Notes: generated from the sequence alone by a model not told the origin. A stretch of DNA of 64,000 nt from Candidatus Nanosyncoccus sp. (GCA_045587885.1 JAZNDC010000030.1:1628-65627), one strand, 5' to 3'; shown: positions 57,914 to 61,201, counted from the stretch's first letter. Translations and numbers: made by a program.

Positions 57914-58009
57914 TTGCTTTTTGGATTAAGGTATTATAAGATAAAAGTACAAAAAGGTCATACATTACAAACAAAAAGGTGTGTTAATGCAACAAAAAGG
58001 TCATGCATT
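57914..58009 (+). promoter_or_regulatory. Promoter with two AGGTCAT(A/G)CATT boxes 43 bp apart
   Basis: TTGCTT-N17-TAAGAT; boxes at 57955-57966 and 57998-58009. Confidence 0.7.
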
Positions 58010-59735
58010 TTTGGATGGCATCTCTTTGATGCCGGAAGATAACACCCGCAAAACAAAAACAAATAATAGGCTTGCGGACTACATTTTGTTGTCTTCCAAA
58101 ATTCGCGTAGCGGCATTTATGTCCGCGGCGTTTTTGTTTGTATTTTCTTTGCTTGCAGTTTTTCCGATAGCTAGTAGTTCGGATGATACTCTGGCCACTT
58201 CTCCTAGAGAGAGCGAAACTTCGATGACGATCAGTACTGATGATTTGAATTTACAATTTGATGTTGATGCAATAAAGGGGACTTTTTCGGAAAGTTCAGC
58301 AAATGTAAGTGTAACTACAAATAATATAACTGGGTATACATTAAATATTGTAACTGGGAATACTGGTAATGATGCCGGAAAACTGGTGGGTGAGAATAAG
58401 TCGTTTAATACGATTTCTAGTGCTACTTCGGAAACGGATTTTGCGGCGGAGTCTGCCACTACTATGAATGGACTTTAGGGATACAAGCCGAGCAAAGTAA
58501 ACGGGGAAAGCAATACTGATTATCTTCCTGCGCCTACGGAACAGACTACAATTGAAAGTACTACGGCGCCAAATGCGCAGGCGAATGTGTATGAAATTGC
58601 TCTTGGTGCTAGGGCGGATATGTCTTATGAAGCTGGTGGATATACTAATACTTTTATTATCACCGCTATTGCAAATCCGGTGAGATATACTATTTCTTTT
58701 AATGAAAATACGGAAGACGAAGTTACTAATATGCCAAGCGAGCAGGGTGGTACGACGGTTGGCACGGTGGTAAGTCTTGCTAGTGATGTGCCGGTGAGGG
58801 ATGGGTATGATTTTGCGGGTTGGTGTGATGGCACGGCGAGTGGTGCGGATTGTACGGGCACGGTTTATCAGCCGGGAGATGATTATGCGATTGACCAGAC
58901 TACTGCTAATAATGTAACGCTTTATGCGCTGTGGGGTAGTGATGCAGTGACTTTTGACGAGGCTTTTGCTGCTGCCGAAAAAACCAAAGATACTACTTCG
59001 GGCAAATATAAAATGCAGGATATGACCGCTTCTATTTGTAGTGCTGTTACTACCGGCCAGACCGGCGAACTCGTCGATACTCGCGATAGTACCGTTTATC
59101 GTGTTGGTAAACTCGCAGATGACAGATGTTGGCTGCAAGACAACCTCGCACTAGACCTTACAAACACAGATGTAAAGAATGCTATGTATGATAGTAGCGA
59201 CTCTACCCATGATACTATGACTAACGCCACCAATACACAGCTAGGCTATCTGTTTAATGGCGGACGTAATTCTGAAGATGCTAATACTGACAACCTTCCT
59301 ACTGCAGGTGTAGCTAACTGGACCAGTGACTATAACTATAACTATTCCGTGCCACTAGTAGATATGACAAGCAAAGACGTTGAACCAACTCACTATTCAG
59401 ATCCTGATCCTCAGTACGACGCAGATGACCCGTTAGCCTCAGAAGTTACTGCTGGGCACTGGAAAGTAGGTGGATATTACGACTATTGTGCAGCTTCGGC
59501 CGGTAGTTACTGCTATGGTGACGGTAGTACATATAGTGGTACACCAGTAGACAAACCAAACACTGCCATCGATGCAGAATACGACATTTGTCCATCTGGC
59601 TGGCGCATGCCTACAGGAGGTAGCTATGATGCTACAGCTCGTCCAGATGGCGGTGAATACCAAAACCTATATGACCATTACTCTGGCGCTAGCGGTACAG
59701 GCGAAGGAAGTAGATATGCTAACTTTAGAAACGCT

Positions 59736-59915
59736 CTTAGCCTTCCTCTCTCGGGCTACTTCAACCAAGGCTCAGCGGACTTTCAGGGCTCGATCGGCTT
59801 CTTCTGGTCCTCTACGTACAATAACTCCGATATGTACGGCCTCGGCGCAGATACATCACGTGTCACGTGGTATTACAACGGTCGCAACAGCGGGAGCTCT
59901 ATGCGTTGTATAGCT
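59736..59915 (+). other. Candidate DGR variable region 1
   Basis: End of first FISUMP domain; differs from the paralogous region at codon positions 1-2 while the scaffold stays identical. Confidence 0.6.
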
Positions 59916-60836
59916 AAAGACGGCACGGAGCCTGCGCCAGTCGACCCGGACAATCCTGTGCAGCCGTATCCAGAGGACCCATGTAACAGTAATCCAGATT
60001 GTGATGCTACAAGTGGTGTAACTCTTCAGCGTGCCTACGAAATGGCTTATACTGCTGCACACAAAGGTATGTACGAAGAAATTAATCCAGGCAGCAATAC
60101 ATATCAATATATAGATTCTTGGAATGGCGTGCAGTACCAAGGTGAAGGCAGAGATGTCCGCTTCCTCATCCAAGATATGACCCCAGAGATTTGTAGCACT
60201 GCTACAGTAATTGGTTCACAGACGCTAGTATTAGATATACGCGACCAGACTAGCTACTATATCGTAAAGGCTGCAGATGGCAGATGCTGGATGCAGGATA
60301 ATTTAGCACTGGATCTTACCAATGTAAATGTAAAAAATGCTATGTATAGCGATACGGATACCAATCATAATACGAATACGAATGCCACTAACACGCAATT
60401 AGGCTATCTATTTAATGGTGGGCGTGTTTCTGGAGAATCTACTACGGATAATCTTCCTACTGCAGGTGTAGCTAACTGGGGCAGTTCAAATAGCTACTCT
60501 GCACCACTAATAAATATGGCAAGCAAAGACATAACTAGAGCCGACTTAACAAATCCAGAAGATACGCTAACAGAAGCAGATGACTGGAAAATTGGTGGCT
60601 ATTACAACTATTGTGCCGCTTCTGCTGGTAGTTACTGTTATGGCGATGGTGCAAATTGGGGTACACCAGTAGACAAACCAAACACAGATATTGATGCAGA
60701 ATACGACATTTGTCCATCTGGCTGGAGAATGCCTACTGGTGGAGCAAGCGGTGAATATCAAGCTCTTGCTACTATCACCAATGGAGCTTCAGGGAACATC
60801 TATGATTCTACTAAATATACAGCCTTTAGAAATGCT

Positions 60837-61037
60837 CTTAGCCTTCCTCTCTCGGGCATCTTCAGCTATGGCTCTACGTACAATCAGGGCACCTACGGCA
60901 ACTTCTGGTCCTCTACATATTATAATGACAACTATGGCAACTGTATGTACTATCTAAGTGCCTATACGTCCAATATCCGCCCGCAGGAATACAGCTATCG
61001 CTTCATCGGTAGCTCTATACGTTGCGTAGCTCAGTAG
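60837..61037 (+). other. Candidate DGR variable region 2
   Basis: 3' end of gene; LPLSG.F..GS...QG..G.FWSST...MY.L.A.TS.....R..GSS.RC.A layout. Confidence 0.65.
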
Positions 61038-61201
61038 TCTTAGAGAAGAGATTCCGTTTCAGTTCTTTACGTTCTCTAATCTCTGAAAAAGGCACTCTAG
61101 GCCCATCATTTAAGCCTATCCATTTTCACGAAAATTTTTATGCATAATAATATCTATGGTGGGGGTTGTAGATTTTACTATTCTATGCTAGAGTGCTGGG
61201 C

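Follow-up and report, generated by a model that had tools for sequence, protein, structure and literature searches.

The surface-protein gene near the end of this stretch of DNA encodes two FISUMP domains with closely comparable but non-identical C-terminal tails, and the question that it raises is whether these tails are written by a diversity-generating retroelement (DGR) located elsewhere in the genome and, if so, whether they are still being rewritten. The window (the whole stretch of 64,000 nucleotides that was analysed) is C30:1628-65627 of an 834-kb genome assembled in 35 contigs (G000; 96.8% complete), and the homologues named in a protein search carry the annotation Candidatus Saccharibacteria. 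A preliminary description of the window had proposed a remote DGR target with two hypervariable tips and, as a fallback, that the two derive from different or older templates or are captured modules. We compared the two tails, here referred to as VR1 and VR2, with the template (TR) and the cognate variable region (VR) of a DGR that lies on two other contigs, and it is the fallback that fits best. From the sequence comparisons we conclude, with a probability of roughly three in four, that VR1 and VR2 derive from the variable region of the DGR in this same genome, as retired or inherited copies, and are not active hypervariable tips. The features concerned are collected in Table 1.

Table 1. Features of the window gene and of the DGR. 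Positions without a prefix are those of the window; positions on other contigs carry the contig name.
Feature	Position	Strand	Remarks
Surface-protein gene	57987..61037	+	Signal/TM N-terminus, conserved-Trp module, Listeria-Bacteroides repeat, two FISUMP domains; one in-frame stop
In-frame TAG	58476..58478	+	TGG to TAG at a conserved Trp; signal peptide cut off from both FISUMP domains
Listeria-Bacteroides repeat (Flg_new / List_Bact_rpt)	58686..58928	+	PF09479, E 1e-07, residues 34-114 of the 816-aa ORF
FISUMP domain 1	59010..59922	+	TIGR02145; 57% amino-acid identity with domain 2
VR1	59734..59922	+	TR-homologous tail of domain 1, gene-internal; probable decayed VR copy
FISUMP domain 2	60165..61034	+	Best TIGR02145 stretch, residues 674-815
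VR2	60835..61037	+	TR-homologous tail of domain 2, gene end; probable decayed VR copy
Region 3' of VR2	61038..61100	+	Weak stem-loop without significance (DNA fold -9.6 kcal/mol; z -1.4)
TR	C12:1336-1529	+	22 AAC/AAT codons; translation LRLPLSGNFNNGSVNNQGSNGNFWSSTYNNSNNMYNLNINTSNINPQNNNNRNNGQSIRCIAR
Complete DGR cassette	C12:1336-4144 and C9:1-1911 (L001/L014)		Outside the window
Third TR-homologous tail	C29:7015-7203	-	LRLPLSGKLYRGSMTNLGVSGMFWSST...; gapless alignment to the TR, 28% non-adenine mismatch

The tandem-FISUMP gene and its two tails

The gene is preceded by recA, recX, a PRC-barrel gene and truB, and a tandem-FISUMP ortholog (P0012, L035) adjoins truB in a syntenic neighbourhood on another Saccharibacteria contig. 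The NCBIfam model TIGR02145 (FISUMP) matches the protein in two stretches with an E-value of 1.1e-21 and a score of 78.3 bits against a cut-off of 41.65; the Pfam model PF09603 (Fib_succ_major) scores 27.3, under its cut-off of 33.9. An AlphaFold model of FISUMP domain 2 has a pLDDT of 85 and a pTM of 0.87, and its sole significant viral match is to another FISUMP protein. Because a Foldseek search of this model against the PDB finds no neighbour below E=1, the C-type lectin fold (CLec2) of FISUMP domains is adopted here from the literature (PMC5758913). Using tblastn, at least 25 FISUMP domains were found in the 834-kb genome, several of them in tandem (four on contig C23, for example), and this family of surface proteins is very large relative to the size of the genome. 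A protein search with residues 400-816 gave nothing above 65% identity, and among 60 relatives searched at the DNA level no ortholog exceeded 77% identity; looking up the exact protein with either of two candidate start codons gave no match, nor did a metagenome scan for the 21-nt block at the 5' end of the VR.

The gene is interrupted by a premature stop, and the ORFs to either side of it (57981-58478 and 58587-61037) share one frame. The translation at this point reads NGL*GYKPSK, compared with NNWGYLPSK in the ortholog P0012 and NKWG in the paralog on contig C9. Recoding of TAG was considered and rejected, as the stop aligns with a conserved tryptophan and the other listed ORFs of the window are normal under translation table 11. 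The TAG could mean that the gene has recently become a pseudogene, could be polymorphic, or could be an error of the assembly.

The two domains share four identical DNA blocks, and each block quoted in the preliminary description is present once per domain: 27 nt at 59295 and 60453, 26 nt at 59538 and 60660, 33 nt at 59571 and 60693, and 21 nt (extendable to 24 nt) at 59736 and 60837, the first position being that in domain 1 and the second that in domain 2. The domains otherwise differ at about 45% of third positions, and the presence of exact blocks of 24-33 nt within them (59295-59756 and 60453-60857) suggests either patchy gene conversion or a constraint at the nucleotide level.

Beyond the LPLSG motif the tails differ mostly at codon positions 1 and 2, and a codon alignment reproduces the pairs that had been quoted as the sign of adenine mutagenesis (TAC/ATC, AAC/AGC, GCG/ACG, GAC/TAC, TTT/AAT, ATC/TAC, TTC/AAC and others). 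When the domains are compared only with each other this contrast is marginal, with 36 differences at positions 1 and 2 and 18 at position 3 in the tail, as against 110 and 100 in the rest of the domain (Fisher p=0.067), and it becomes significant once the real TR serves as the reference. With the TR as the alignment reference, 37 of 62 TR-adenine sites (60%) and 19 of 121 other sites (16%; p=2e-9) differ between VR1 and VR2. They also have 12 non-adenine states in common against the TR, and are separated by a multi-codon indel. The 19 non-adenine differences and the indel mean that VR1 and VR2 are not both fresh copies of any single template.

The DGR on contigs C12 and C9

When both window tails are searched against the genome with BLAST, the matches are at the end of contig C9 and at two places on C12, a contig of 4.1 kb. 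C12 also encodes the one RT in the whole genome (PF00078 RVT_1, E about 1e-11; 3.7e-12 in the genome search), a protein of 387 aa that contains the IGNLTSQ and YVDD motifs, which are hallmarks of DGR RTs, and whose best solved relative is the DGR RT 8ub7_A (E 1.3e-19). The TR reads GGC AAC TTC AAC AAT GGC TCA GTG AAC AAT CAG GGT AGT AAC GGC AAC TTC TGG TCC TCT ..., which is close to the template that the preliminary description had deduced from the two tails; its remark that the RT, TR and Avd are absent from the 64 kb is likewise consistent with our analysis, as all three are on another contig.

The cassette is arranged on the minus strand as a single-FISUMP target gene (running from C9 into C12), a gene for a 329-aa protein and the RT, followed by an inverted TR, which is on the strand opposite to the RT, just beyond it, and converges on its 3' end. 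The same inverted-TR layout is seen at the other DGR loci of the genus for which both the RT and the TR were located. The 329-aa accessory protein, encoded between the VR and the RT, is basic (pI 9.6) and is conserved beside the RT in relatives, and it has no match in Pfam or NCBIfam. In its AlphaFold model (pLDDT 81.5) the C-terminal part forms a four-helix bundle, and superposition of this bundle on Avd (4dwl) gives a TM-score, normalised to Avd, of 0.81-0.83 and an rmsd of 2.0-2.2 A; against 4dwl and chains B-E of 8ub7 together the probability is 1.00 and the target-normalised TM-score 0.75-0.83, with weak Foldseek E-values of 0.05-0.5. On the strength of this model the C-terminal third of the protein is predicted to be an Avd-like domain, which provides the cassette with an accessory of the Avd type. 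The coding sequence of the Avd-like gene contains, in its 5' part (L014:3560-3610, C12), a perfect inverted repeat of 14 bp (GGCGATGCTGCCTC / GAGGTAGCATCGCC) with a DNA fold of -20.7 kcal/mol and a z-score of -5.0.

The cognate VR differs from the TR almost exclusively at adenines. At the C12 end (minus strand), 21 of 65 adenine sites and one of 124 other sites are changed, and at the C9 end the corresponding values are 23/59 and 0/106. The two contig ends overlap by 205 nt (C9:1-205 and C12:3940-4144) and have a common 5' flank, and all of the 26 differences between them are at TR adenines. We therefore conclude that the assembly forks at a heterogeneous cognate VR. On the 3' side of the last A-to-N site the TR and the cognate VR are identical over 75 of 75 nt, extending past the stop codon. 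A GC-rich hairpin was looked for 3' of the cognate VR and of both window tails, and none was significant. A DGR is thus present in the genome, with a DGR-type RT, a TR/VR pair that differs essentially at adenines only, and a heterogeneous cognate VR.

The DGR of Bordetella phage BPP-1 is phage-borne and consists of Mtd, Avd, TR and bRT, with a differing IMH/IMH* pair. The DGR described here resembles it in its RT (8ub7_A), in the bundle that superposes on the Avd structure 4dwl and in the 3' segment common to TR and VR, and its mechanism is assigned by homology. It differs from BPP-1 in being cellular, in using another target domain, and in having a 3' segment that is identical in TR and VR over the 75 nt and is without a significant GC-rich hairpin.

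VR1 and VR2 measured against the template

VR1 differs from the TR at 31 of 62 adenine sites and at 22 of 121 non-adenine sites (18%), with two one-codon deletions, and VR2 at 26 of 65 and 25 of 124 (20%) respectively, with three extra codons. The excess of mismatches at adenines is significant for both (p=1e-5 for VR1 and p=0.006 for VR2). The description of the tails as DGR-type sequence is supported, as they are homologous to the TR of the genome and enriched for adenine changes. In addition, 18-20% of their non-adenine sites are mismatched. These non-adenine differences occur about every 8 nt along the entire VR and are more frequent at third positions (24-30%) than at positions 1 and 2 (12-14%), a bias that probably reflects ordinary drift under purifying selection. 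They do not correspond to infidelity of the RT, because the same RT is near-perfect at the non-adenine sites of the cognate VR.

The 3' end of the tails departs further from the template. Within the 75-nt 3' segment of the TR, only 29 positions match in VR1 and 35 in VR2 (39-47%), of which 17 and 21 respectively are in the first 34 nt. An active target has differences confined to adenines, minor exceptions aside, and an IMH-type 3' segment shared with the TR, and VR1 and VR2 have neither. There is also no alternative haplotype contig for VR1 or VR2 in the assembly by BLAST, the 67-kb contig being a single haplotype. The claim of a remote target with two tips that are hypervariable at present is not supported, in view of the 22 and 25 non-adenine mismatches, the indels, the missing 75-nt segment, the 19 non-adenine differences between the tails and the single haplotype. 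Downstream of VR2, the region with a weak stem-loop and the sequence downstream of the TR have the motifs GATTCCG, CGTTCTCTA and AAAAGGCA in common in a MAFFT alignment.

Given this degree of divergence, we considered whether the tails have any DGR history, or whether they are ordinary paralogs in which ligand-contact residues have diverged by selection and the likeness to the TR reflects common ancestry. Adenine enrichment alone is not specific to a DGR, because the majority of the distant FISUMP paralogs also have an excess, albeit a weaker one, of change at TR-adenine codon positions 1 and 2 over other first and second positions (p=0.0005-0.03), and part of the signal therefore comes from intrinsically variable binding positions; the marginal contrast between the two domains points the same way. 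Codon-level patterns are more discriminating. In AAY codons of the TR that have a changed first or second base, the third base is kept in all cases in the cognate VR (16/16 and 17/17, 100%), in 14 of 16 in VR1 (88%), 11 of 16 in VR2 (69%) and 8 of 18 in the C29 tail, and in 30 of 76 in four distant paralogs (about 39%), such that retention in VR1 and VR2 together (25/32) clearly exceeds that in the distant paralogs (p=3e-4). Moreover, six of the 16 changed codons of VR1 have both positions 1 and 2 substituted with the third base kept, and the divergence between VR1 and VR2 is itself concentrated at adenine sites. An origin independent of any DGR is, in view of these patterns, improbable. The non-adenine mismatch to the TR increases from 0-1% in the cognate VR to 18-20% in VR1 and VR2, 28% in the C29 tail and 44-58% in the distant paralogs, and the C29 tail appears to be an older retired VR.

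Another possibility is a second DGR, missing from the fragmented assembly, with one or two further TRs that have VR1 and VR2 as their targets. A second TR could be absent, because the 35-contig assembly has a completeness of 96.8% and relatives often have two or three DGR RTs. Of 121 genomes sampled across the genus, 80 have homologues of the RT, often two to three per genome; several of these matches are split or truncated. The 12 non-adenine states common to VR1 and VR2 are also as might be expected from a sister template. Nonetheless, no additional TR-like copy was found when both VRs were compared by BLAST with the entire assembly, the genome has a single RT, the window gene carries a premature stop, and the non-adenine differences and indel between the two tails are at odds with a common template, so that we consider a missing second DGR quite improbable. 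A better-fitting TR from the relatives was also sought and rejected, as the genome's own TR is closest to VR1 and VR2: in the cross-TR comparison their non-adenine mismatch is 16-17% to their own TR and 21-33% to the TRs of relatives. The distance between VR1 or VR2 and their own TR is nearly that between the TRs of different species (22-24%).

Finally, that VR1, VR2 or both are still diversified in trans by the C12 TR, with sloppy or partial homing behind the non-adenine differences, is highly improbable, as the approximately 190 nt of homology to the TR, the adenine-enriched mismatches and the documentation of remote targets and non-A-to-N differences in other DGRs (PMC5758913) are outweighed by an RT that makes 0-1 non-adenine errors per more than 100 sites in its cognate VR, by 22-25 scattered, third-position-biased non-adenine differences and indels, by a 3' IMH-equivalent segment with only 39-47% identity, and by the lack of an assembly fork.

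Origin of the tails, known systems and relatives

The most probable explanation for VR1 and VR2 as retired or inherited copies is as follows. At the DGR itself, TR-derived cDNA, randomised at the adenine positions, would replace the cognate VR. The window gene is a paralog of the single-FISUMP target of the DGR, and the variants in its tails would be products of adenine mutagenesis. Such variants would either date from early homing in place or have been inherited through copying of an already diversified VR sequence by duplication or gene conversion. The tails would then have lost the 3' recognition segment, and would afterwards have drifted by point mutations and indels under purifying selection. 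That homing no longer occurs at VR1 and VR2, and the order of these events, we infer from the sequences.

The timing is constrained by third codon positions, at which domains 1 and 2 diverge from the cognate gene by 48-50% upstream of the VR, and by 12% and 26% respectively inside it. The low divergence inside the VRs indicates that the tails shared sequence with the TR lineage after the two domains had split, a contact that could equally have come about by homing in place in the past or by capture of an already diversified VR. If only the proximal flank is taken for comparison, VR1 does not stand out significantly (p=0.13). Domain 1 is nearer to the cognate gene in its 3' half, with 80% nucleotide identity over 391 nt, and this resemblance, together with the long identical blocks that link the two domains, makes gene conversion among the paralogs plausible.

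We suggest tentatively that the graded series of tails (cognate VR, VR1, VR2 and C29) records a cycle in which variants are diversified, duplicated and frozen, a possibility that we hold to be less than even by some way. If so, useful DGR variants would be copied into paralogous or tandem FISUMP domains, the copies would escape mutagenesis through loss of the 3' recognition segment, and the DGR would seed a standing family of adhesins with fixed specificities and not one varying gene. The rarer alternative, rewriting of VR1 and VR2 in trans, would if true amount to a two-tip target with an internal VR. Saccharibacteria live attached to host bacteria as epibionts, and the observations here bear on how epibionts change, and then fix, their binding specificities; they suggest that part of the FISUMP family of Saccharibacteria may descend from DGR-diversified tips. 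They also illustrate that a DGR template located elsewhere in a genome can be anticipated from sequence alone, and that a sequence which looks like a VR need not be hypermutated at present, the count of non-adenine mismatches and the 3' segment being what separates live from retired targets. The general significance is modest, because the system is a typical CPR DGR with a target of the FISUMP class, which is a known kind.

Among characterised systems, the Legionella pneumophila LdtA DGR (DUF1566/DUF823/Fib_succ_major 'CLec2', category d; PMC5758913) is similar in having a surface protein with a FISUMP/DUF1566-type domain and its VR at the C-terminal end of the domain, an AAC/AAT-rich TR and an Avd-type accessory. 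The DGR here differs in that the TR is on the strand opposite to the RT and target, the Avd-like domain is predicted within a 329-aa protein, and the host is a Saccharibacterium; relative to the survey in which that class is defined, which uses an A-only criterion (PMC5758913), the two tails of the window differ from the TR beyond adenines. Wu et al. (2018) report that CPR DGRs often have several non-A-to-N differences, with a maximum of 11 in one target, and accept as remote targets those with A-to-N differences only, minor exceptions being allowed (PMC5758913). In the Treponema denticola TvpA DGR (as cited in PMC5758913), there are likewise several paralogs with TR-homologous tails far from the RT, and there the changes in the remote VRs are restricted to TR adenines. 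Those in VR1 and VR2 are not, and since their differences from the TR exceed the adenines, unlike those described for Treponema, we do not accept them as targets.

The DGR also resembles the Patescibacteria/CPR DGR clade (clade 2 of Roux et al. 2021, PMC8144416; the 'CPR set' of Wu et al. 2018), being chromosomal, in a small CPR genome and with a single adjacent target. The commonest CPR architecture reported in that work is TR-(avd)-RT, whereas the order here is target, Avd-like gene, RT and inverted TR. CPR DGRs usually have a single target (PMC5758913), and the results with two relatives, G094 and G021, agree, as each of their TRs that was tested matches the adjacent VR only. An apparent second VR in G094 was rejected, as it is the same locus at a contig break. 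G094 is the closest relative and has the same assembly fork at its VR (at the end of its contig C5 and the start of its C7; L045, L046), with one non-adenine exception, and a break at the cognate VR may thus serve, at the level of the assembly, as a marker of DGR activity in these genomes. In a further relative (G012, 96% complete), in which no RT is found at E<=1e-20, there are three matches to the VR region, at C10:40932-41128, C14:6895-6996 and C4:3740-3841 of that genome, and these may be further orphan VR-like tails.
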